DNA of 64,000 bases from Pseudomonadales bacterium. Lineage in GTDB: Bacteria > Pseudomonadota > Gammaproteobacteria > Pseudomonadales > Azotimanducaceae. Positions 2,069 through 63,055 of the stretch are shown in pieces. Below the pieces are notes generated by a model. The model saw only the letters and a program-made list of their open reading frames with translations. It had not been told where the DNA came from and searched no databases. The stretch spans positions 25,857-89,856 of the forward strand of contig JAGWBM010000029.1 of the NCBI GenBank assembly GCA_021295895.1. The letters run 5' to 3'. The translations under genes were made by a program, and so were the position numbers. The stretch's first letter is position 1. Each line of letters opens with the position of its first letter.

Positions 2069-3514
2069 TCAGGAAGCATCCCCGGACAATGCCTCTTGAA
2101 GCAACTCGCTGACCCGTCGGGGATTCGCCTTGCCACCGCTGGCTTTCATGGCTTGACCGACGAGGAAACCCAGCACGCGTGTCTTGCCGGATCGTACCTG
2201 CTCGACCTGGGCGGGGTTTGCATCGATCACCCGACGGACGATGGCCGCGATCTCGTCGCTGTCGCTCACTTGCTTGAGGCCGCGGCTCCCGATCAGTTCG
2301 TCGACGTCGCCGCCGTCGTTCCAGAGGGTCTGGAACAAGGACTTTGCGATCTTGCCCGAGATGGAGCCGTCTTCGATCCGCTTGATGAGCTTGCCGAGTT
2401 GCGCTGCGGGAACGGGGACCCTGGTCCAGGCGGCTTCTTCCCGGCGTACGGCGGCGGCGACATCGCCCATGACCCAGTTGGCGGCTGCCTTGGGCTGGCC
2501 GGATGCTGCTGCGGCGGCGTCGAAGTAGGTGGCCGTGTCCGGGTCGACGGTGAGCCAGCGGGCGTCGTAGTCGGTGAGGCCGAGCTCCTCGACGTAGCGT
2601 CGGCGCTTGGCAGTCGGCAGTTCCGGCAGCGTGGCCCGTGCTTCGTCGAGCATCGATTCCGTGACCATCACCGGCAGCAGGTCGGGATCGGGGAAGTAAC
2701 GGTAGTCGTCGGACAGTTCCTTGCCCCGCATCGGTCGGGTCTCGTCGCGTTCGGCGTCGTAGAGGAGCGTCTGGCGTTCGACCCTGCCGCCGGATTCGAG
2801 CACGTCGATCTGCCGTTCGATCTCGAACGCGAGCGCCTTGTCGAGGAATCGGAACGAGTTCAGGTTCTTGATCTCCGTTCGCTCGCCCAGTTCCGTCGAG
2901 CCTCGCTGGCGCACCGAGATGTTGGCGTCGCAACGCATGGAGCCCTCGTTGAGGTTGCCGTCGCAGATTCCCAGGGTTCGAACGAGCGTGTGCAGGGTCC
3001 TGAAATAACGACCGGCTTCTTCCGGGGAGGCGAGTTCGGGTTCGCTGACCACTTCGAGGAGCGGCGTCCCCGCGCGGTTCAGATCGATTCCGGTCTTGCC
3101 TTGGTAGTCTTCGTGGAGCGACTTGCCGGCATCCTCTTCCAGATGGGCACGGGTGAGCCGGATGCGTTTGGTCGAACCGTCCTCGTTTTCGATATCCAGG
3201 TGACCGCCGGTTACGATCGGCTCGTCGAGTTGGCTGATCTGGTAGCCCTTGGGCAGGTCGGGATAGAAATAACTCTTGCGGTCGAAGCGGCACCGTTCGG
3301 CGATGTCGCCCTCGACTGCGAGCCCGAACACGATCGCCATGCGTACTGCCTCGCCGTTCAGCACGGGTAGGACGCCGGGTAGCGCAAGGTCCACGGCGCA
3401 AGCCTGCGTATTGGGTGGCGCGCCGAATGCGGTGGGGGCCCCGGAGAAGATCTTGGTGCGGGTCTTCAGTTGGACATGGGCCTCGAGCCCGATGACGCTT
3501 TCCCAATCGCTCAC
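2069..3514 (-). CDS. gatB: Asp/Glu-tRNA amidotransferase subunit B (GatB)
   Basis: Lies in the frame of ORF 2069..3772. The conserved N-terminus [17 protein letters not shown] begins at GTG 3514 (GTGA overlap with the gatA stop). The upstream part of the ORF is Arg-rich nonsense. Confidence 0.9.
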
Positions 3515-5070
3515 GATCGCCCCATCGCCGGGCCGGCGCTTTGCATTCGCTGTGCGCCGCCGCCGCTGCCGGCCGAGCCACGGCGCCCCTCCATGGAATA
3601 TCTGCCGCCGCTCGTGTCGCTTGCCCGGGCGTTTGTTCCATGGACGGCCGGTGTCCGCTGGTGCCAGTCTGTCTCCCGCTGGAACGACTCGGCGAGGGAG
3701 AGCAGTCGATCTTCGCCGAAGTGCGGGGCGATGATCTGCATCCCGACAGGCAGTCCGTCGACGATCCCGCACGGAATACTCAGTGCCGGCAGGCCGGCCA
3801 GGCTTGCGGGGACGGTGTAAACGTCCTGCGCGTACATGACCGTTGGGTCTTTGGTCTCGTCGGGCGCGACGAGTGCGCCTTTCTCGAACGCCGTGGAAGG
3901 CGTGGAGGGTGCCAGGATCAGGTCGACGGTCTCGAACGCGTCGAGAAAGTCCTGCCGGACCAGGCGGCGCAGCCGCTGCGCCTTGCGGTAGTAGGCATCG
4001 TAGTAACCGATCGACAGGGCATAGGTGCCGGTGAGGATACGGCGCTTCACCTCCGCGCCGAATCCCTCGCTGCGCGATCGCGCGTACAGGTCGTCGAGGT
4101 CGACGGGCGACTCGGCGCGGTGTCCGAAGCGGACGCCGTCGTACCGCGACAGGTTGGTGGACGCCTCCGCGCTCGCGACGACGTAGTACGCGGCCGTCGC
4201 GTAGGCGGTATGTGGCAAGGAGATTTCCAGGCGCCCGTGACCCAGACGCTCGAGGATTGCCGCAGCGTCATCTACGGTTGCGGCGAAGTATTCCCGGGGG
4301 ATTCCTATTCGCAGGCCGGTTCCGTCCGTCTCGTGCGGCGTGGGGCCGACATCCGCGCTGGTGGAGTCGAGCGGATCGTGACCCTCCATGTGTTGCAGCA
4401 GCAGGCGCAGATCCTCGGCCGAACGCGCCATCGGTCCGCCCTGGTCGAGGCTGGACGCGAACGCCACCATCCCGTAGCGCGATACCCGCCCGTAGGTGGG
4501 TTTCAAGCCGCTGATCCCGCACAGAGCGGCGGGTTGCCGAATCGACCCGCCCGTGTCGGTGGCGGTGGCTGCGGGAACCAGACCGGCGGCAACGGCCGCG
4601 GCGGAACCGCCCGACGACCCGCCGGGCACCCGCGTCGCGTCCCAGGGGTTGGATACCGGTCCGAAGTAGCTGTTCTCGTTCGACGAGCCCATGGCGAACT
4701 CGTCCATGTTCGTCTTGCCGAGCATGATCGCGCCGGAATCGCGCAACTTGGTGACCACGGTGGCGTCGTAGGGCGGCACGAACTCGGAGAGCATCCGCGA
4801 TGCGCAGGTGGTACGCACGCCCGCCGTACAGAACACGTCCTTGTGGGCGATCGGGACGCCGACGAGGCCCGTTTGTCCCTGGCAGGCGATGCGCTTGTCG
4901 GCCTCCCCGGCGGCGGCGAGGGCGTCTTCTTCGCAGACGGTAACGAAGCTGTTGAGGTCGCTCGCAGCGATGCGGTCCAAGCGCTCCCGGGCAAGTTCCA
5001 CGGCGCTGGTCGTCTTGGACTTGAGCGCGGCACGAATATCCTCGATCGTCGCGAACCGCCCGACGGTCAT
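3511..5070 (-). CDS. gatA: Asp/Glu-tRNA amidotransferase subunit A (GatA), with an unusual C-terminal tail of about 35 aa
   Basis: 519-aa ORF with the amidase signature ([25 protein letters not shown]). ATGA overlap with the gatC stop. Confidence 0.93.
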
Positions 5071-47812: not shown

Positions 47813-48772
47813 ATGGCAACGCCCCGCAGACTGCTAGTGGATCCCGAGAACGCGTGCGCCTATCACTTGGCGTCGAAGTGCACTCGGGGCATGTTCCTAT
47901 GTGGTTGGGATCGTCTGACGCGCAAACAGTACGGACACCGCCGGCGCTGGCTGGTCAAGCGGGCCCGAATGCTGGCGTCGTGCTTTGCGGTCGACTTGCT
48001 CACTTACACGGTGATGAGCAACCACTTCCACTTGATAGCGATCTACGACCCGAAGGCTAGCGAGACCTGGTCCGACCAAGAGGTGGCACGCCGTTGGGTC
48101 GACGCGTTTCCGCCGCGCAAGCCGAGTTCGAGGGTCCGCGGCAAGTTTGCAGCGGCAAGGATGTGGGAGCTACGCAAGGCCGAACGGAGAACACTGATGT
48201 TGTCCGACGCCGACCGGCTTGAGCGGGCTCGGTGCACGTTGGGATCGCTGTCCTCGTTCATGAAGCACTTGAAGCAGCCGATCGCACGGCGGGCGAACCT
48301 CGAGGACGACTGCGAAGGGCATTTCTTCGAGCAGCGGTTCTATTCCGGAGCACTCTTGAACGAGAAGGCGATCATCGCGGCCTCGGCGTACGTGGATCTC
48401 AACCCGGTGCGCGCCGACCTGGTGGAGCGGCTCGACGAATACGAGGAAGCATCGATTGCCGAGCGGGTCCGGGAAGATAGCCCGGAGCGGCTGAACGATT
48501 ACCTCCGTCCTATCGCCTCGGGACTCGGCCCGCAGCAGTATCGGTCATTCGTGGACATCACTCTCGGCGACTACGTGGGTTTGCTGGAGGGGATGATCGC
48601 GGCACAAACGACACCCGAGAAGAAAACCGTTCAATCCGATCGGATCTCGGATTGGCGGGCACGGATGTTCGCGCTCAGCAAACGACAGCGCGCCTACGGT
48701 TCGGCGGAACAGCTTAGGGCATGGTCAAGCGAGCGCGGCCTGCGGTGCCTCGAGACGCCTCTGCCCAGCTGA
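47813..48772 (+). CDS. Long Y1 HUH transposase-like protein (IS200/RAYT superfamily)
   Basis: MATPRRLLVDPENACAYHLASKC..., HUH motif MSNHFHLIA, GHFFEQRFYSGALL, catalytic-Tyr motif AYVDLNPVRADLV. 319 aa from ATG 47813; the ORF is open from 47762. Confidence 0.75.
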   Translation: MATPRRLLVDPENACAYHLASKCTRGMFLCGWDRLTRKQYGHRRRWLVKRARMLASCFAVDLLTYTVMSNHFHLIAIYDPKASETWSDQEVARRWVDAFPPRKPSSRVRGKFAAARMWELRKAERRTLMLSDADRLERARCTLGSLSSFMKHLKQPIARRANLEDDCEGHFFEQRFYSGALLNEKAIIAASAYVDLNPVRADLVERLDEYEEASIAERVREDSPERLNDYLRPIASGLGPQQYRSFVDITLGDYVGLLEGMIAAQTTPEKKTVQSDRISDWRARMFALSKRQRAYGSAEQLRAWSSERGLRCLETPLPS

Positions 48773-53092: not shown

Positions 53093-53155
53093 ACCGCTAG
53101 CCCCGTGGCCGACTCTTCCTGCTGGCCCGACTCGTACACTTGTGTTTATTCCGGA

Positions 53156-53200
53156 CTCGGACACACACCGCCTTTGGTGATGTTGCGGTGGTGTCACCCG
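53156..53200. repeat. Solo copy of the CTCGGACACACACC family with its own hairpin
   Basis: CTCGGACACACACCGC-CTTTGGTGATGTT-GCGGTGGTGTCAC in the 382-bp gspE-gspF spacer. Confidence 0.7.
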
Positions 53201-53474
53201 CCCCCACCGCCAAACGCCCCGGATTGAGCGCCTGCCCCCCCTGTGCTACGTTGCCGACGTCGAGGCCCGAGGATGGATCCATGGGCGAAGCACTCGCATT
53301 GACGTTGACCGCATTGCGCACCAAGTCGAGGTGCGACCGCGCCACTGGCGGAACTTCCCGCGAACCCCGGGGTCTACATGCCCACTTGCGTGCCGGCATC
53401 CTCGGGGGGAGCGCCGCCGGACGCTGTAGGCAACCCGAGCGAGCACACAGGATCCCGTTGCTCCTGCTACCAAT

Positions 53475-54671
53475 ATGCCCCAGTACGACTACGAGATCGT
53501 CAACGGCGAAGGCGAACTGACCAAGGGCCAGATCGAGGCCGCGTCGCCCGCGGAGGTCGCCCGCCGCCTTGGCAGCGACGGCCAAACGCTGGTCGGCGTC
53601 AAGGAATCCCCGGCCACCACGCTTCCGACTTTCCGTCGGCGACTACGCACCGTCGACCTGGTGATCGCCTTCCGCGAACTCGCGACGCTGCTGTCTTCCG
53701 GCGTGTCCTTGGGCGACGCGGTGATCTCACAGAGCAAGGGCAGCTACCACCCGCAGCTGGTTGCCGCGTTCGACGAGATCTCCAAGGAACTGATGCGCGG
53801 CGCCAACTTCCTCGGCGCCGTCCGCGCCGCCAAGCTGCCATTGCCCGACCATCTCTACCACCTTGTCGAGGCCGGCGAGCTGAGCGGTCACCTCGCCGAA
53901 TCGCTCACCCGCGCGGTCGAGCAGATGGAATACGACCGCCACGTGGCCGGCGAGCTACGCAGTGCGCTCACCTACCCCGCGATCCTCGTCGCGTCCTGCG
54001 CGGCTGCGGTGCTCGCGGTGTTCTTCTTCGTCGTCCCGGAGTTCGTGCACCTGCTCGAGGGCGACGCCGAACTGCCGCTCGTCTCGGAACTCGTTCTCGG
54101 TACCGGCGCCTGGTTCAACGACAACCGCTGGCTGGTCGTCGCGATCGTGATCGCCGTGGCGTTCACCGTCGCCGCCCTGTTCAGGAACCCGAACATACGC
54201 CAACGGTTCGTGGACACCCTGGCCCGCCTACCCCTGCTCGGGCAATGGTATTCGGAGACCGACACCGCCAAGTGGGCGATGGTGATGAGCGCCATGCTGA
54301 CGAGCCGGGTCGAACTGGTCGGCGCCTTGGGCCTCGCGGCCCGCGGCGTGCGGGTCTCCCGACGCCGGGCCATGCTCGACCGGGCATTGGCGGACGTGCG
54401 CGGTGGCGAAACCCTGTCGACCGCGCTCGAGAAGCAGGATGCGCTCACCGCCACCGGCTACAACCTCATCCGGGTCGGCGAACAGTCGGGACAACTCCCC
54501 GAGATGATGCGTTCCCTCGCGACCCTCTACGAGGAGAACAGTTCGCGGCGCATGAAGCGCGTCCTCACCCTCATCGAACCCGTGGCGATCCTCGCCATCG
54601 GCGCGTTCATCGGCACCATCTTCATCGGCGTAATACTCGCAATAACGGCGGTCAACAATGTCCCATTCTGA
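53475..54671 (+). CDS. gspF: Type II secretion inner-membrane platform protein GspF/XpsF
   Basis: 398 aa. Duplicated GspF domain architecture with three TM segments. Position after gspE. Confidence 0.9.
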   Translation: MPQYDYEIVNGEGELTKGQIEAASPAEVARRLGSDGQTLVGVKESPATTLPTFRRRLRTVDLVIAFRELATLLSSGVSLGDAVISQSKGSYHPQLVAAFDEISKELMRGANFLGAVRAAKLPLPDHLYHLVEAGELSGHLAESLTRAVEQMEYDRHVAGELRSALTYPAILVASCAAAVLAVFFFVVPEFVHLLEGDAELPLVSELVLGTGAWFNDNRWLVVAIVIAVAFTVAALFRNPNIRQRFVDTLARLPLLGQWYSETDTAKWAMVMSAMLTSRVELVGALGLAARGVRVSRRRAMLDRALADVRGGETLSTALEKQDALTATGYNLIRVGEQSGQLPEMMRSLATLYEENSSRRMKRVLTLIEPVAILAIGAFIGTIFIGVILAITAVNNVPF

Positions 54672-55233
54672 CAACTTCCACGAAACGGGAGGGGCGACCC
54701 TTGCAGTCGCCCGCATCGTAATCCGGCGTTCGCGTCGACACGGGACGGGACAAGCCCGTCCGCTACGTTCGCCCCGCACGAACCGCCTGTTCCGCGCCGT
54801 TCGTTGCGCGCCCCGCGGCTTCTCATTGGTCGAACTCCTCGTCGTACTGGTCATCCTCGGCCTGCTCATCGGCCTGGTCGCCCCGAACTTCATGGGCCGG
54901 GCCGAACAAAGCCGCGGCGATGTCGCCAAGGTGCAAGTGGAATACCTCCACGGCGCACTCAAGACCTACCGCATGGACGTAGGCCGGTTCCCATCCACGG
55001 AACAAGGCCTGGGGGCGCTCATGCGGGCACCGACGGAAGTCGCGGACTACTGGCGAGGCCCCTACCTCGACAAGGAACTGCCCCTCGATCCCTGGCGCAA
55101 TCAGTACCAATACCGCTATCCCGCCGACAACCTACAAGGCCTCGCGCTCTATTCGTTCGGCGCGGATGGCGCCGAAGGCGGGGAGGGCAACGACGCCGAT
55201 ATCGGCTACCTGCCGGAGGCGACGACCGAATAG
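54658..55233 (+). CDS. gspG: Major pseudopilin GspG/XpsG (translation start unresolved)
   Basis: Prepilin site RG|FSLVELLVVLVILGLL at 54817-54822, then canonical GspG (DPWRNQYQYRYP...YSFGADGAEGGEGNDADIGY). The only in-frame ATG/GTG/TTG is ATG 54658, which would give a 53-aa leader running through a REP doublet. Confidence 0.85.
   Translation: MSHSDNFHETGGATLAVARIVIRRSRRHGTGQARPLRSPRTNRLFRAVRCAPRGFSLVELLVVLVILGLLIGLVAPNFMGRAEQSRGDVAKVQVEYLHGALKTYRMDVGRFPSTEQGLGALMRAPTEVADYWRGPYLDKELPLDPWRNQYQYRYPADNLQGLALYSFGADGAEGGEGNDADIGYLPEATTE
54688..54766. repeat. REP doublet (A + 29 nt + B) at the gspF/gspG junction
   Basis: GGAGGGGCGACCCTTGCAGTCGCCC at 54688-54712. GGGACGGGACAAGCCCGTCCGCTAC at 54742-54766. 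Confidence 0.88.
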
Positions 55234-55335
55234 CTGCGTGCGTGCGCGCTGCTCGCGGCTTGTACATATACATATATAAATGGGTACTCTCGATACAAAT
55301 CCGTCGCGAAGACCTCAACGGGGCGTTGGGGCTGC

Positions 55336-55557
55336 GGGACGGGACAAGCCCGTCCCCTACGGTCGTGACCCATGCGTCCGTGTGTGTGCCCGGCGGGGCG
55401 AACGGGTCCGTAGGGGCGACCCTTGCGGTCGCCCGAATCGCGAGGTGGCGGCTGTGGGCACGGGACGGGACAAGCCCGTCCCCTACGGTCGTGACCCAAA
55501 TGCAGGCGTGTGTGCCCGGGTGGACCGGATCCGTGCGGACGCCCCTTGCAGACGCCC
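55336..55557. repeat. Four-REP cluster (B-A-B-A') = tandem duplication of a ~125-bp composite unit
   Basis: B at 55336-55360, A at 55410-55434, B at 55462-55486, degenerate A at 55533-55557. Each B is followed by TCGTGACCCA...GTGTGTGCCCGG. Confidence 0.88.
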
Positions 55558-55981
55558 GTATCGACGGCTGGCATCCGGGATCACCCTGATCGAACTCCTC
55601 GTCGTCCTGGCACTCCTCGGCGTCCTCGCCGCCGTGGCGCTCCCGAATCTCGAGCGACTGACCGCCAGCGTCACCCGGGACACCCAGCGCGAGCACATCC
55701 TCAACCAATTCGCCGAACTCGGCGCCGCCGCCATGCTCGACGGACTCGATTACGTGGTCGTCGGAACCGATGCGCCGGACGGCGAGGCCATCGACGCCCT
55801 CGTCGGCCGGACGCGTTATCCGCTCGACGTCCCGGGCGGCTGGGAAGTCCTCATCGACGAACCGATCCTGGCCCGTGCCAACGGCGTATGCCTCGGCGGC
55901 GCCGTGACCTTGCTCCACGAGGAACTCGAACCGCTCTCCCTCGAACTAACAGCCCCCTTCTGCCGGGTCGATGCGTCCTAA
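55520..55981 (+). CDS. gspH: Minor pseudopilin, GspH/XpsH position (start uncertain)
   Basis: Prepilin site SG|ITLIELLVVLALLGVLAAVALP. The nearest in-frame start is GTG 55520 (19-aa leader), inside the degenerate REP. The frame is open back to ATG 55280. Confidence 0.7.
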   Translation: MDRIRADAPCRRPYRRLASGITLIELLVVLALLGVLAAVALPNLERLTASVTRDTQREHILNQFAELGAAAMLDGLDYVVVGTDAPDGEAIDALVGRTRYPLDVPGGWEVLIDEPILARANGVCLGGAVTLLHEELEPLSLELTAPFCRVDAS

Positions 55982-56480: not shown

Positions 56481-57322
56481 TGCCCCCCCGGAACCTGCAC
56501 CATCAACGTGGTCACCTCAGCCGCGCAGCCGGCATGACCCTCGTCGAAACCCTGGTCACCTTCGTCATCCTGGGCTTCCTCACCACCCTCATCCTGCAAG
56601 CCGTCGGCTTCTTCGCAGCCCGCTACGAGGGCGTCCAGCGCGTGCACCGCGTCGCCGCCCTGGAGTCGCTGCAGCAAAACTGGTTCGCGACCTCCGTGCA
56701 GGGCTTCGTTCCCTACGGCGTCCACGCCCGCCGCTTCCAAGGACAACCGACCCGCTTCGAGGGCATGACCCTGGAACCCCTCCATGCCCAAGCCGGCACG
56801 CCGGTCACCGTGCGCTGGTCCATCACCGAAGACGGCGTGCTCTACTCGGAGTCCCTCGCACCATCGGTCCCCGGCATCGAATGGCCCATCCGTGGCTCGG
56901 ACACTTCCGTACGACCCCAATCCCGTCCTCAAGCGGACACACGCGAAATTTTCGATATCGATTTGAGATCACGCCGTTTGGCACCCGGGTACCCCGACGC
57001 ACGCCAGGGCGATCTCGTTTTCCACTACGCCGACGCGTTCGCCAACTGGTACGACCACTGGCCCCCGCGCCCCGACGCGGATCCCGTGCCCGGCACCGCA
57101 CCACGGCCGGGGCAGGCGGCACCCCAGAGCATCGACGACCTCATCGACGCGCTGGCGGAGACGGCCACGGTCAGGGTCTCGTCGGACGATCCGCTCCTCG
57201 ACCCGGCGAACGACTGGACCCCGCGTCTCATCCGCCTCTTCTCCGCCGAAGAAGGCACCATCTGGCTCGCCCGGGTGGAGCCGTCCGCCCGTCCGCTGCT
57301 TACCGACGTGGACGTCGAATGA
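56480..57322 (+). CDS. gspJ: Minor pseudopilin GspJ/XpsJ (long, 280 aa)
   Basis: AG|MTLVETLVTFVILGFL prepilin motif. The ATG shares one nt with the gspI stop. A C7 tract directly follows the start codon. Confidence 0.7.
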   Translation: MPPRNLHHQRGHLSRAAGMTLVETLVTFVILGFLTTLILQAVGFFAARYEGVQRVHRVAALESLQQNWFATSVQGFVPYGVHARRFQGQPTRFEGMTLEPLHAQAGTPVTVRWSITEDGVLYSESLAPSVPGIEWPIRGSDTSVRPQSRPQADTREIFDIDLRSRRLAPGYPDARQGDLVFHYADAFANWYDHWPPRPDADPVPGTAPRPGQAAPQSIDDLIDALAETATVRVSSDDPLLDPANDWTPRLIRLFSAEEGTIWLARVEPSARPLLTDVDVE

Positions 57323-58356
57323 CCCGGCGGGAAGGTTTCATCCTCGCGGCCACCCTCTGGGCGCTGGTCGCGCTCACCGTGGTCGCCGCCTACATCAACG
57401 GCGTGACCCGCACCAACGTGGACAACGCCGACCGCGCCAAGCGGATGCTGCAAAGCGAACTCGATCGCCGCGGCACCGAAGCCACGCTGCTCTACCTGCT
57501 CTCCACCAACCGCATGAACCACCGCAACCTCGTGCTCGAGTCCGAGCAGCACTTCGACATCGACGACCAGATCCTCACAGGCGACGGGGACGCCACCCTG
57601 AGCCTCGCCAGCGACCCGTACCAGGGCCTCGGCGAAGTCGCCTTCTCCCTCCAGGACGAGACGGGCCTGGTGTCCATCAACACCCCCAGCGAACCCCTGA
57701 TGGCCCGCGCCCTCGAAAGCCTGGGTGTCGCCCCCAAGATTGCCGCCGGCCTAATGCCGCGCATCCGTGACTACATCGACAAAGACCACATCCTGACGCT
57801 CGACGGCGCCGAAGACTACGACTACGCCAAGGCCGATCGGCCGCCCCCCGCGAACTGGCATCTCACCACCGCGATGGAGTTGAACCGCGTGCTCGGCGCC
57901 GACGGCATCCTGGACCGCGCCCAATGGCAGCGCCTGCGCGCCATGACCACGCCGCGAACACTCGCCGCCGTCAACTTCAACACCATGCCGCCCGAAGTCG
58001 CCGCCGCGATCCTCGAGACCGACGTCGACAACCTCGCCGAGTTCCTGGCCGCCCGGGAGGAGGAGTCCCTCTCCCGGCTTGATCGCATCCGCGAACTGAC
58101 GGGACAATACGCCGAGGTCGACTCCGGGCTGATCGCCACCGTGCCCTCCGTCTTCCTGAGGATGACCACTTGGTGGCAGCACGGCGGACCACGGACGGTC
58201 GTCGGCATCACCCTCACGCCCTCGACGCCAATCGGGCCACCGGCCGCCGCACCGTGGCGCAAGGAGTACCGCTATTCCGAGCCAGCCGACCACACGGGGA
58301 CGCTTCGCCAGGCGGCGACGCCACTCCTCGGCGGGCAACCCGGGGATCCGACATGA
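57319..58356 (+). CDS. gspK: Minor pseudopilin GspK/XpsK
   Basis: ATGA overlap with the gspJ stop. MTRREGFILAATLWALVALTVVAAY (no Glu+5, as in GspK). 345 aa. SAM-like middle region. Confidence 0.75.
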   Translation: MTRREGFILAATLWALVALTVVAAYINGVTRTNVDNADRAKRMLQSELDRRGTEATLLYLLSTNRMNHRNLVLESEQHFDIDDQILTGDGDATLSLASDPYQGLGEVAFSLQDETGLVSINTPSEPLMARALESLGVAPKIAAGLMPRIRDYIDKDHILTLDGAEDYDYAKADRPPPANWHLTTAMELNRVLGADGILDRAQWQRLRAMTTPRTLAAVNFNTMPPEVAAAILETDVDNLAEFLAAREEESLSRLDRIRELTGQYAEVDSGLIATVPSVFLRMTTWWQHGGPRTVVGITLTPSTPIGPPAAAPWRKEYRYSEPADHTGTLRQAATPLLGGQPGDPT

Positions 58357-58370
58357 CCCGAGGTGATCCC

Positions 58371-58577
58371 GTACGGACGACCCTTGCGGTCGCCCGAGTT
58401 GACGTTGGCGGACCGGCGTACACGGGACGCCACAAGGGCGTCCCCTACGTGAGCCCCGAGGGTGTCGCGGGCCATCGCCCCACGAAACGACACACCCCCG
58501 TAGGGGCGACCCTCGCGGTCGCCCCGATTGACGTTCCCGATTCGGTTCGCGCGAGACGTCCCAAGGGTGTCCCCCAC
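58371..58577. repeat. Four-REP cluster (A-B-A-B) = two tandem A-spacer-B doublets between gspK and gspL
   Basis: A' GTACGGACGACCCTTGCGGTCGCCC at 58371-58395. B' GGGACGCCACAAGGGCGTCCCCTAC at 58424-58448. A at 58500-58524. Degenerate B at about 58553-58577. Each A is followed by (A/G)TTGACGTT. Confidence 0.88.
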
Positions 58578-58615
58578 CGCCATCCCAGCGGCATCCCCGA
58601 GGGCGGACGATCCAG

Positions 58616-59812
58616 ATGAGCGACCCCGCCGAAACCGCGCCGCAGGCGGATCGCGGACCCCGCCCCGCGACCCGCGCGAGACAACTCGCCGAACCCCTGG
58701 CCAACGGGGTACGCCGCTGGCGCCGCCGTCTCGCACGCCGTCCGAACGCCATCCAGACCCGCAACGGCAGCGAGCCGCTGGACTTCAAGTCCGTCCACGC
58801 CCACTGGATCATCGGCCGCGACCTCTGCCTCTACCGTTCGGAAGATTTCGCCGCCATCCCCAGGAACCGACGCGATGCCGCCGTCGCCCTGCGCATCCCC
58901 GTCTGGAGCCCCTTCCAGCGCACCGGCCACCACTGCGTCTGGTCCGGCAGCACCGCCATGGTCTGGTTCTGGGACCAGGAGGCGGTCGACATCCGCCCGA
59001 CGGACCTCGGACTTCCGGAGACCGGGACCACGTCGACCGACCCGGCAAACCGAACCCGGACCCGCGTCCTCCCCGAGTCCGTCTTCCAACCCCGCCACGG
59101 CGCCGGCCTGCACCTGCAGGCCTGCGCCAACGGCTACGACCTCCAGTACTGGCAAGACGACGTCCTGAAGGACGCCCTCTGGCTCCCCCAGCCACCCGAC
59201 ACTGCCCGCGTCCAGGCGTTCCTCAGCCAAGCCCCGATCATGGCCGACGACGCCACGGCGTTGGCCTTCGAAACGCCGGTGACCTCGCCGACCACCTTCG
59301 CCCCAGACCCCTGGTACTCGCCCCTCACGCCGCAAGCCTGGCTGATCGCCAACGAGCGAACCCTGGTGATCGCCGGCCTCGCGATATTCGCCGCCGCCGC
59401 CGCCTTCGAGGAAGCCCGGGTCTGGCGCTACCACTTCGCCCACCAGGCCGCCGCCGCCGAACTCAGGCAGATCGACGAGGAACTCGCCCCCGTGCTGGAC
59501 GCCCGCGACGAACTCGTTGCCCTCAACCGCCGCAACGCCTTCCTGGCCGACATTCTCAACGAGCCCTCGCAGGCCGAACTCATGCTCCGCGTGGACCGAG
59601 TCCTGCCCAGCGACAGCACCGAGTTCCAGGCCTGGCGCTACCAGCAGCGCGACCTCGCCCTGACGCTGTCCGACGACACGGGCATCGACCCCGTCGCCGT
59701 CGTCACCCGCCTGCAGGCGGAACCCATGTTCAAGGATGTCCAGCCGGGCCGAGCTCAGCGCGAGGGCATCGAGATCACCCTCAACGTCGACCCGGCGGCA
59801 AACAACCCGTGA
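58616..59812 (+). CDS. gspL: GspL/XpsL-like bitopic assembly-platform protein (divergent)
   Basis: 398 aa. Cytoplasmic domain of about 260 aa, a single TM (LVIAGLAIFAAAAAF), then a periplasmic domain of about 120 aa. Position K-L-M. The call rests on topology and synteny only. Confidence 0.55.
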   Translation: MSDPAETAPQADRGPRPATRARQLAEPLANGVRRWRRRLARRPNAIQTRNGSEPLDFKSVHAHWIIGRDLCLYRSEDFAAIPRNRRDAAVALRIPVWSPFQRTGHHCVWSGSTAMVWFWDQEAVDIRPTDLGLPETGTTSTDPANRTRTRVLPESVFQPRHGAGLHLQACANGYDLQYWQDDVLKDALWLPQPPDTARVQAFLSQAPIMADDATALAFETPVTSPTTFAPDPWYSPLTPQAWLIANERTLVIAGLAIFAAAAAFEEARVWRYHFAHQAAAAELRQIDEELAPVLDARDELVALNRRNAFLADILNEPSQAELMLRVDRVLPSDSTEFQAWRYQQRDLALTLSDDTGIDPVAVVTRLQAEPMFKDVQPGRAQREGIEITLNVDPAANNP

Positions 59813-61026: not shown

Positions 61027-63055
61027 ATGACCTATACGCCATTACCCCGATGCCGCCCGCCGCCGGCGACCGCCGCGATGCTGGCGTTGTTTGCCCTGGG
61101 CATGGCCGGTTGCTCGAGCCTGAGCGTCGAACCCTTCCCGGAACCGCTGAGTGCCACACCCTTGGCACCGGAGGACGAGGTGCTGCTATCCGGTGGTGAT
61201 GAAGGAGCGGATCCCACCGCACCCACCGTCACCCGCGCCCCGGGTGTGCCAATCGGCCCGACGGTTGCCGAGGGAACCGCCGACGACCTAGGCCAAGACC
61301 TCACCGGCGATCCCATCGAGGAGGTGGCCTTCAACAACGCGCCGCTCCCCATCTTCATCGACGCGCTCTTCAACGAGATCCTCGGACTCTCGTTCGTCGT
61401 CTCGCCTGACCTGCGCGACACGACCGATCTCGTCACGTTGCGCATCGCCGAGCCGATAACCCCGAGCCAGCTATTCACGACGGCCCGGCGGGTCCTGGAG
61501 GAACACTACGGCGTGCGTATCCGTGCCGACGACGATGGCATCCTGACCTTCGAGCCCACCGACGAGATCGCCGCCAGCGGGATTCCCCTGCTCATCAGCG
61601 GCCGGACGCGCCCGGAAGTGCCTGCGACGCACCGTACGGTGTTCCAGATCGTCCACCTCAAGGTGATGTCGCCCAACGATGTCGCCAGCCTCCTGCGGCG
61701 TCTGTTGGGCGGTGTCGAGCTCGAGTTCGAGGAATACCCGCTGCTGGGTGCGGTCCTGCTCAAGGGGAACCTCTCGTCCATCGACCGGGCGGTGGCCATC
61801 ATCGAGGTCCTTGACCAACCCCGACTCAGCGGTCGCCACGGCCTCGTCATCGAACCTGTCTTCCTCGACGTCGCCGAGTTGGCGACCGACTTGAACGAAG
61901 TCCTCCGATCCCAAGGCTATAGCTCGCGGGTGGGCTATTCCGACCTTTCGGGTGCCATCGTGCTACTTCCCCTGAGGAGCGCGAACAAGCTCGTGGTCTT
62001 CGCGGTCGACCCGGCCATCCTCCCCCGCGTGGAGGAGTGGGCCGAGGTCATGGATGCCGAGCGTGAAGCCGCCGTGGAGGACGTTCAAGAACACCCTGGC
62101 GGAGGATCTGATCGAGACCCTGAACCAGGTCTTGAGCATCGAGGGCGCCGAGGAAGGGGAGGACGGTGCGGGGGAACGACGCCAGCGGCGTCGGTCGGGT
62201 ACTCAACTTGTGTACGAGAAGAGCCGGAACGCCGTGCTCTACCGGGGCAACGGCAAGGATTGGGCGCGGATCCGCATTCTGATCGACAAGCTCGACAAAC
62301 CCGTTCCCCAGGTCTTGATCGAAGTGCTGCTCGCCGAAGTCACCCTGAGCGGCCAGGAGGAGTCCGGCATCGAGTACCTCGCCAACCTCGGCATCGGCAG
62401 CCGGGGCATCGACGCCCAACTCACCTCGGGCGGGCTATCCATGGCCCTCGATGGCGCCGGCGAGACGAGGGCCCTGCTGCGCCTCGCCTACGAGGACAAC
62501 CGCGTGGCGATCCGCTCCCTGCCGCGGCTCGTCGTCAAGAGCGGGGAATCCGGCAACATCTTCGCGGGATCGCAGGTGCCGATCCTGTCCCAGCGCGCGG
62601 AGGGCGTCCAGGTGGAGGGGTCCACCAGCATCGTCCAGCAGATCCAGTACCGCAACACCGGGGTTACCTTGGACATCACCCCGATCGTCCAGGCCAATGG
62701 GCTCGTCGATCTCGAGATCAGCCAGACCTTCAGCGAGACCCGGGCCGCCGGCGCCGCGAGCCTGACGCCGACGATTCTCAGCCGCAATCTCGCCACCAGC
62801 ATGACGCTGCGCGACGGTCAATCCGTCATCATGGGCGGCCTGATCTCCGACACCCAGAGCCAAGGCCATTCCGGCGTGCCCGGCCTCGGTCGGATTCCCG
62901 TCGTGGGCCGCCTGTTTCGGGCCGACTCGTTTCAAAAAGACCGTACCGAACTCGTCGTGATGGTGATACCCTATGTCATTGCTGACCATCGTCAGGGCCG
63001 AGAGCTAACCGAGCAGATAAAGTCGCAGCTTGAACTGCACCGACGTTTCCTGTAG
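61027..63055 (+). pseudogene. gspD: T2SS secretin GspD/XpsD with lipoprotein-type signal, interrupted by a +1 frameshift near 62075-62085
   Basis: ATG 61027 lies 7 nt after AAGGAGGTG. LALFALGMAGC lipobox-like signal. N0-N2 domains are in frame 1 (ORF 60994..62985, sense until about 62080). N3 (TFKNTLAEDLIETLNQVL) and the secretin domain (QVLIEVLLAEVTL...GVPGLGRIPVVGRLF) are in frame 2 (ORF 62054..63055). The span is 2029 nt. Confidence 0.8.

Follow-up and report, generated by a model that had tools for sequence, protein, structure and literature searches.

An open-reading frame made of REP repeats bridges gspK and gspL in a gammaproteobacterial type II secretion operon

The gspK–gspL spacer and its REP units

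The 64,000-nt stretch of contig JAGWBM010000029.1 analysed here (the window, to which all coordinates refer), from a Pseudomonadales bacterium, contains a type II secretion system (T2SS) operon with the gene order gspE-F-G-H-I-J-K-L-M-N-D, in which the spacer between gspK and gspL is filled with repetitive extragenic palindromes (REPs) and is spanned exactly by a single open-reading frame (ORF) of 88 codons (Table 1). The ATG of this bridging ORF overlaps the gspK stop codon in an ATGA (58353–58356), and its TGA overlaps the gspL ATG in a second ATGA (58616–58619), a geometry that might hand ribosomes on from one gene to the next. The genome carrying the window, that of an uncultured sponge symbiont, is a 92%-complete metagenome-assembled genome (MAG; 3.39 Mb, 64% GC, 166 contigs), and its nearest public relatives are sponge-derived gammaproteobacterial MAGs.

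Table 1 Features of the gspK–gspL junction (positions in the window).
Feature	Position	Strand	Remarks
gspK (T2SS minor pseudopilin K)	57319..58356	+	Pfam PF21687 T2SSK_1st, E=2.6e-8; stop TGA 58354–58356
K-side junction copy, GATCCGACATGA	58345..58356	+	holds ATGA 58353–58356; direct repeat of 58609–58619
Bridging ORF, 88 codons	58353..58619	+	ATG 58353; TGA 58617–58619; REP-encoded junk peptide
REP A1	58371–58396	+	degenerate; head GTACGG, so no TAG; hairpin −12 kcal/mol
REP B1	58424–58448	−	inverted, perfect (GTAGGGGACGCCCTTGTGGCGTCCC on minus strand); hairpin −17.8 kcal/mol
REP A2	58500–58524	+	perfect; hairpin −20.4 kcal/mol; its TAG (58501) closes the gspK frame
REP B2	58553–58577	−	inverted, degenerate; fold no better than shuffled sequence
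L-side junction copy, GATCCAGATGA	58609..58619	+	holds gspL ATG (58616) and bridging ORF stop (58617–58619)
gspL-like gene	58616..59812	+	named from synteny (K-L-M-N-D order), without family match

The first-pass annotation, made from the sequence alone, had described this ORF, and its coordinates and the ATGA overlaps at both ends proved exact on re-check, whilst the spacer, given there as 260 bp, measures 259 nt. Its length of 88 codons holds when counted from the first ATG; the frame itself is already open from 58170, with a TTG at 58170, a GTG at 58173 and a further GTG upstream. The name gspK is borne out by its Pfam family, and the C-terminal end of the protein (GGQPGDPT) is homologous to the tails in three related loci (L056, G024 and L055); the name gspL comes from gene order, the product having no match in Pfam or NCBIfam and none in an exact look-up. 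This gspL-like gene is present in 25 of 41 related genomes, its N-terminus (MSD) is common to relatives, and ATG 58616 is the sole start usable in its frame, which is closed at 58529. The gene 3′ of it matches GspM_XpsM weakly (E=2e-8, below the cut-off), and a scan of metagenome contigs with GspK gave no match.

The bridging ORF shows no coding signature: it scores −0.02 per codon against +0.41 for gspK and +0.36 for gspL, its GC content at third codon positions is 0.70 against 0.88, one antisense frame of the spacer scores as well as it does, and its product belongs to no Pfam or NCBIfam family, in agreement with the earlier view that the product is REP-encoded and unlikely to be functional. 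Gene-calling pipelines nonetheless annotate it as a gene on several public contigs of the same species.

The two tandem doublets of REPs reported for the spacer are real. They form two units that recur every 129 nt and are 74% identical to one another; in each, a forward REP is followed by ~28 nt that include TTGACGTT, then by an inverted REP and, last, by a short tail (..CCCCGAGGG..), with inner REP–REP spacings of 27 and 28 nt; A2 and B1 are perfect hairpins, A1 and B2 have decayed. The ATTGACGTT motif found between both REPs of each unit is also contained in the gspE–gspF spacer of the operon (53093–53474). The REP consensus reads GTAGGGG-N5-CTTG-N5'-CCCG, in which an 8-bp stem with compensatory variants encloses a 5-nt loop, and a single copy holds a stop codon in one of its six frames only, the TAG of the GTAG head. 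GTAG-headed REP forms exist elsewhere, such as the Stenotrophomonas SMAG repeats. A genome scan detected 321 copies, compared with eight in reversed-sequence controls, in 259 clusters; relative to 2926 genes predicted with a simple codon-usage caller made for this analysis, 108 clusters are convergent, 99 tandem (same-strand), 20 divergent and 16 lie inside called genes. Head-out arrangement was found in 58 of 80 doublets, with a modal inner spacing of 27–30 nt, which is the pattern of REP doublets forming hairpins (REPINs) or bacterial interspersed mosaic elements (BIMEs).

The elements thus resemble REP, BIME and REPIN sequences mobilised by REP-associated tyrosine transposases (RAYTs) in being imperfect, GTAG-headed palindromes of ~25 nt whose stems covary, present in hundreds of mostly extragenic copies and in head-out inverted doublets ~27–30 nt apart (PMC8266576, PMC8049555, PMC12306157). 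A PF01797 (Y1 transposase/RAYT) search of the 92%-complete, 166-contig assembly found no match despite ~320 REPs; the gene at 47813–48772 of the window does not reach the PF01797 model. An Rfam search of 58200–58750 returned no match, no sigma-70-like promoter was detected within 57300–59300, and the single terminator-like site in that interval (minus strand) lies within shuffle expectation.

In Escherichia coli, intercistronic REPs stabilise mRNA, and those lying <16 nt from a stop codon can brake translation. We know of none that serves as a relay ORF, and a brake effect is unlikely at the gspK–gspL spacer because the first stem starts 18 nt after the gspK stop.

The junction in related genomes

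For comparison we used GspK homologues of 70–87% identity together with their contigs, and built a GspK tree; the gspK–gspL junction loci in these relatives include L021 and L050–L058 (Table 2). Across most of the genus the two genes overlap or lie ≤8 nt apart, and in two loci a single ATGA serves as both gspK stop and gspL start, reading CCCGTCATGACCGAT in L055 and CCCGGATGAGCGAC in G006. The gspL start ATGAGCGAC is conserved in G012, G006 and L052. Copies of the junction flank the inserted DNA, the insert in the window lying within an imperfect direct repeat (GATCCGACATGA / GATCC-AGATGA), that of L052 within a perfect 8-nt repeat (CCCGATGA) and that of L050 with ATGACC on both sides.

Table 2 State of the gspK–gspL junction in the genome of the window and in relatives.
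Locus	Group	Junction
Window	inner clade	259-nt insert, four REPs
L051	inner clade	127-nt CA-rich insert
G012 (pairs with L050)	inner clade	1246-nt insert, REPs and reverse Uma2 gene (PF05685)
L050 (pairs with G012)	inner clade	420-nt insert, non-REP 120-nt tandem repeats
L052 (pairs with L053)	inner clade	100-nt insert, one REP unit
L053 (pairs with L052)	inner clade	REP array, not evaluable
L054 (pairs with L055)	inner clade	large insert, reverse Fic and Uma2 genes
L055 (pairs with L054)	inner clade	single ATGA overlap, no insert
L056	outgroup	tight junction
L057	outgroup	295-nt insert
G006 (pairs with L058)	outgroup	single ATGA overlap, no insert
L058 (pairs with G006)	outgroup	~1.9-kb insert, two forward genes

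At the level of sequence, these loci establish that the ancestor of the clade had gspK and gspL overlapping by ATGA, that one REPIN-type doublet unit entered the junction with duplication of ~8–12 nt including the ATGA, and that this unit was later tandemly duplicated in the species of the window. As the ATGA was part of the duplicated segment, gspK kept its stop and gspL its start; from the single ancestral ATGA and the flanking junction copies, ATG 58353 is therefore the former gspL start, and the ATGA pair the scar of the duplication. The double ATGA is thus non-random, accounted for on this comparison by duplication of the ancestral overlap, and the pair is no coincidence, but neither is it in itself an adaptation. 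Readings of the K-side ATGA as the result of a chance wobble A (5.4% of Thr codons are ACA, and 12% of non-overlapping genes have an A before TGA) and of the L-side ATGA as merely ancestral were dropped because L055, L050 and L052 show the ancestral overlap and the flanking direct repeats. The ORF as a fossil of a gspK tail reading through the insert was also rejected, because the position of the gspK stop is shared with L056 and G024 and the ORF lies in the −1 frame relative to gspK.

A duplicated target sets the gspK–gspL insert apart from RAYT/IS200-type insertion, for which target duplication is, to our knowledge, not a known mode. Within a lineage the two copies of the junction seem to resemble each other more closely than they do those of other lineages, a hint of concerted evolution or of selection on the context of reinitiation. 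The junction is moreover an insertion hotspot, with different inserts in seven of the eight inner-clade lineages, and the 120-nt tandem repeats of L050 each start with a copy of the gspK end (CCCGTCATG...).

The insert of L052 is colinear with the second unit of the window, sharing the same REP, the GTCAACG/ATTGACG motif and the 3′ tail, and is crossed from ATGA to ATGA by a 35-codon ORF, which a public pipeline also calls. The phase in which REP and tail are translated is the same in both genomes (VGATLAVAP... in the window and VGANLVVAR... in L052, ending in ...IPEGGRSR and ...IPKAGPSR, respectively, before the stop), and the two inserts differ in length by 159 nt (53 × 3). Different routes to continuity are seen in other lineages: in L050 the frame of the ATG copy at the gspK stop closes after 69 nt, but a GTG 25 nt before the stop opens an ORF (3513..3962) that ends on the gspL ATGA, whilst L051 is open in each of its three frames and gspL there shares its frame with an ATG situated 10 nt ahead of the gspK stop. 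L057 has an open frame that ends on the gspL ATGA (ORF 3355..3894), no start codon for a bridge was found near the gspK stop by reading of the sequence, and gspL is preceded by a strong AAGGAGAC Shine–Dalgarno sequence; none is evident before gspL in the lineages with a bridge.

Start-to-start continuity is present in three of five independent gene-free inserts (binomial P ~0.01 at p=0.1 and ~0.06 at p=0.2), and all five are open in the frame that ends on the gspL ATGA (P ~0.025 given the open frames per spacer), both statistics being post hoc and from a small sample. The chance that a single event yields a frame that is both in phase and open is estimated at ~0.1–0.2, and the base rate of such continuity in the genome of the window is 5–12% under the same lenient definition. 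These values (P ~0.01–0.06) are suggestive of selection for a relay frame at the gspK–gspL junction, which is unproven.

A ribosome relay and its alternatives

Termination–reinitiation is efficient at −4 overlaps and almost abolished by a spacer of ~20 nt (PMC10666635; review PMC12548453), and the coupling geometry of gspK and gspL is ancestral in the genus. The K-side ATG would have inherited the context that once served gspL, for which reason ribosomes finishing gspK should still reinitiate at ATG 58353. They would then read 88 meaningless REP-encoded codons, melting hairpins en route, terminate at the TGA overlapping the gspL ATG and start again from that codon, such that termination–reinitiation coupling from gspK to gspL would be kept across 259 nt. 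We infer these steps of reinitiation, read-through and hand-over to gspL from the literature, and consider a working relay of this type, built from REPs and similar to that of mycobacterial repeats described below, to be evenly poised between holding and failing. The in-phase, stop-free state is probably a matter of survivorship rather than a property of the REP family, in that inserts that broke the coupling would have been lost, or would have needed a new ribosome-binding site.

A series of observations weighs against this relay, the first of them from the genome at large. In the gspK–gspL spacer itself one of three sense frames is open, compared with two of three antisense frames (three of six in total); 97 REP-bearing same-strand spacers have on average 0.77 open sense frames against 0.89 antisense, and nine REP spacers inside tight gene runs (operon-internal) have 0.67 in either sense, so there is no genome-wide sign of the suggested preference for in-frame, stop-free REPs within operons. 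Among REP-bearing spacers of 200–300 nt, at least one sense frame is open in 68% and at least one antisense frame in 65%. The first-pass annotation had named chance expectation as the control that would count against it, and genome-wide eight bridges of the form NTGA..NTGA were observed among 698 same-strand spacers of 60–500 nt, with 7.9 expected under independence. The open frame across the gspK–gspL spacer is therefore ordinary and not beyond chance. Bridges with both overlaps occur in two REP spacers where 0.25–0.6 are expected (permutation P 0.02–0.11), and the relay geometry, found in two of 85–97 REP-bearing same-strand spacers, is not family-wide. The second case, an ATGA...GTGA ORF outside the window (C146:10391-10567) in a REP-bearing spacer of 169 nt, is flanked by a PIN-domain toxin gene and an unrelated gene for a desaturase-like membrane protein, and is apparently a chance instance. 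A 156-nt REP spacer between mreD and rng in the window lacks any open sense frame, which tells nothing as a counter-example, since G006 already has a spacer of ~100 nt there.

Further points against the relay come from the junction and its relatives. The window genome and L052 share one insertion, hence their common frame represents retention through several indels and not independent events. G003 carries a 300-nt insert of another repeat type without a bridge, G012 has intact gspL, gspM and gspN despite its 1246-nt insert, and L054 and L058 also have large gene-bearing inserts; coupling between gspK and gspL is dispensable in several relatives (G012, L054 and L058). In the same operon, the 382-nt gspE–gspF spacer has no fully open sense frame. 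Within the species, nine sponge-metagenome contigs compared across the gspK–gspL spacer show no indel, a point in favour of the relay, and the five single-nucleotide polymorphisms (SNPs) in it (58383 and 58461 non-synonymous in the ORF; 58406, 58529 and 58532 synonymous) are too few to test selection. In strain L046, GGG replaces GGGG at 58342–58345, which moves the gspK stop to 58364–58366 (…GGQPGIRHDPR) and turns the −4 ATGA overlap into one of 14 nt. The proposed hand-over of ribosomes from gspK to gspL remains physically sensible in its geometry, in its ancestral coupling and in the failure of reinitiation beyond ~20 nt, but is tempered by the dispensability of coupling in relatives and by the unbridged gspE–gspF spacer; the accompanying proposal of selection on how REPs are tolerated finds no genome-wide signal and modest support from this one locus.

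The strongest alternative is that the ORF is an inert by-product, a serious possibility if somewhat short of probable, in which the REPs are selfish or neutral, the ATGA pair is a duplication scar, the open phase is luck in stop-poor palindromes of 70% GC, and gspL uses its own weak ribosome-binding site, unaffected by the ORF. A repeat with a stop in one of six frames, a spacer with half its frames open, bridge counts equal to expectation, an antisense frame that scores as well as the ORF and a second ATGA..GTGA bridge between unrelated genes are all as this account would have them. So too are L057, where the same frame is open but has no start codon for a bridge, and the ~25 nt upstream of gspL, which are shared with G012, where gspL must self-initiate behind a 1.25-kb insert. 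Luck is less at ease with the continuity of three in five independent gene-free inserts (binomial P ~0.01–0.06 at a base rate of 0.1–0.2) and with a frame kept in the window genome and L052 through a net change of 159 nt, whilst the K-side ATG, as an inherited reinitiation site, makes translation of the ORF hard to avoid.

The relay also has to be seen beside other repeats in the operon, as the leaders of gspG and gspH, which are translated, also harbour REP doublets. In gspG the sole canonical start, ATG 54658, overlaps the gspF end and is conserved across the genus, and an in-frame REP doublet lies between it and the cleavage site (between G and FSLVELL; 54658–54819), giving a leader of 54 aa. 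This leader measures 13–31 aa in most species and 51–69 aa in the window genome, G012, G006 and G002; it bears REPs in the first three of these, there is no alternative start in the window genome or G006, and G006 reads the homologous REP in another frame. In gspH an uninterrupted frame leads from ATG 55280 across four REPs to the cleavage site between G and ITLIELL (55280–55579). Its start, MGTLDTNPS, is common to G012 (MDVLGTNPS), in which it is the sole ATG, with a TTG four codons upstream of it; among same-species strains this leader varies by one indel of 123 nt, the length of a REP doublet, and another of 3 nt, each divisible by three. This organism therefore demonstrably tolerates the translation of REP sequence. 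At the far end of the operon, gspD of the window genome has a 17-nt deletion at 62083 that frameshifts the secretin, which is intact at 681 aa in same-species contigs (L045 5219–7264); the frameshift is either a real pseudogene or an assembly artefact.

Decay of the operon, with relaxed selection on the secretion system in sponge symbionts, repeats and foreign genes piling up and no maintenance of the geometry, appears improbable. The diversity of inserts among seven of eight inner-clade lineages, the expansion of four junctions of the operon, the deletion in gspD, and SNPs within the species that are at least as often non-synonymous as synonymous in gspJ, gspL, gspM and gspN would all suit it, yet in other strains the same spacer occurs alongside an intact secretin, the remaining gsp genes are intact both in the window genome and in relatives, and species and strains alike keep the REP inserts of the gspG and gspH leaders in frame, which argues for continuing selection on translation of the operon. 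That the ORF encodes a functional small protein, as its annotation by pipelines on several contigs might suggest, is scarcely credible for a sequence made of REPs that has no family match or codon-usage signature and whose counterpart in L052, at 35 aa, is without most of it.

Known relays and wider meaning

The kind of relay proposed here is already known, whilst the element and the host are new. Mycobacterial interspersed repetitive units (MIRUs; Supply et al. 1997, as summarised in PMC12548453) are, according to that summary, short repeats in operon junctions, present in tandem copies, with a same-sense ORF that overlaps the stop of the gene before it and the start of the gene after it by 4 nt each, a design thought to keep coupling such that the insertion is tolerated. 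The gspK–gspL spacer matches them in location, two units filling the stop/start junction of co-directional operon genes, and in the same-sense ORF with −4 overlaps at both ends, found here and in the single unit of L052. It departs from them in that the element is a GTAG-headed REP hairpin doublet in a gammaproteobacterial host, unrelated to MIRUs, in that one ORF runs across two units instead of one per unit, and in that the relay geometry, at two of 85–97 REP-bearing same-strand spacers, is not general to the element family and looks like survivorship at one junction.

Rickettsia palindromic elements and other miniature inverted-repeat transposable elements inserted in frame in coding genes are tolerated since they are translated and stop-free (review PMC10969869), a likeness that applies to the doublets in the gspG and gspH leaders; the gspK–gspL insert, by contrast, lies between genes, is read as a separate ORF and is part of neither protein. 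Taken together, the K/L relay ORF and the in-frame gspG/gspH leaders of 50–100 aa might reflect a survivorship rule, by which overlapping junctions and cleavable leaders in tightly packed operons are colonised by small repeats and only inserts that duplicate the junction and can be read in the single phase that hands ribosomes on persist as short inserts, acting in this clade on REPIN-type REPs; we put this rule forward tentatively, and regard it as rather doubtful.

Should the relay fail, the locus would serve as a negative example, with exact gene-bridging ORFs expected about eight times per genome by chance at high GC. If it works, REPs, the commonest bacterial repeats, could invade operon junctions overlapped by ATGA without uncoupling the synthesis of subunits, by the same trick as has been proposed for MIRUs, which would also explain a class of “hypothetical protein” calls. 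The locus carries the prediction that repeats are tolerated only where the insert keeps phase with the duplicated stop/start signal.

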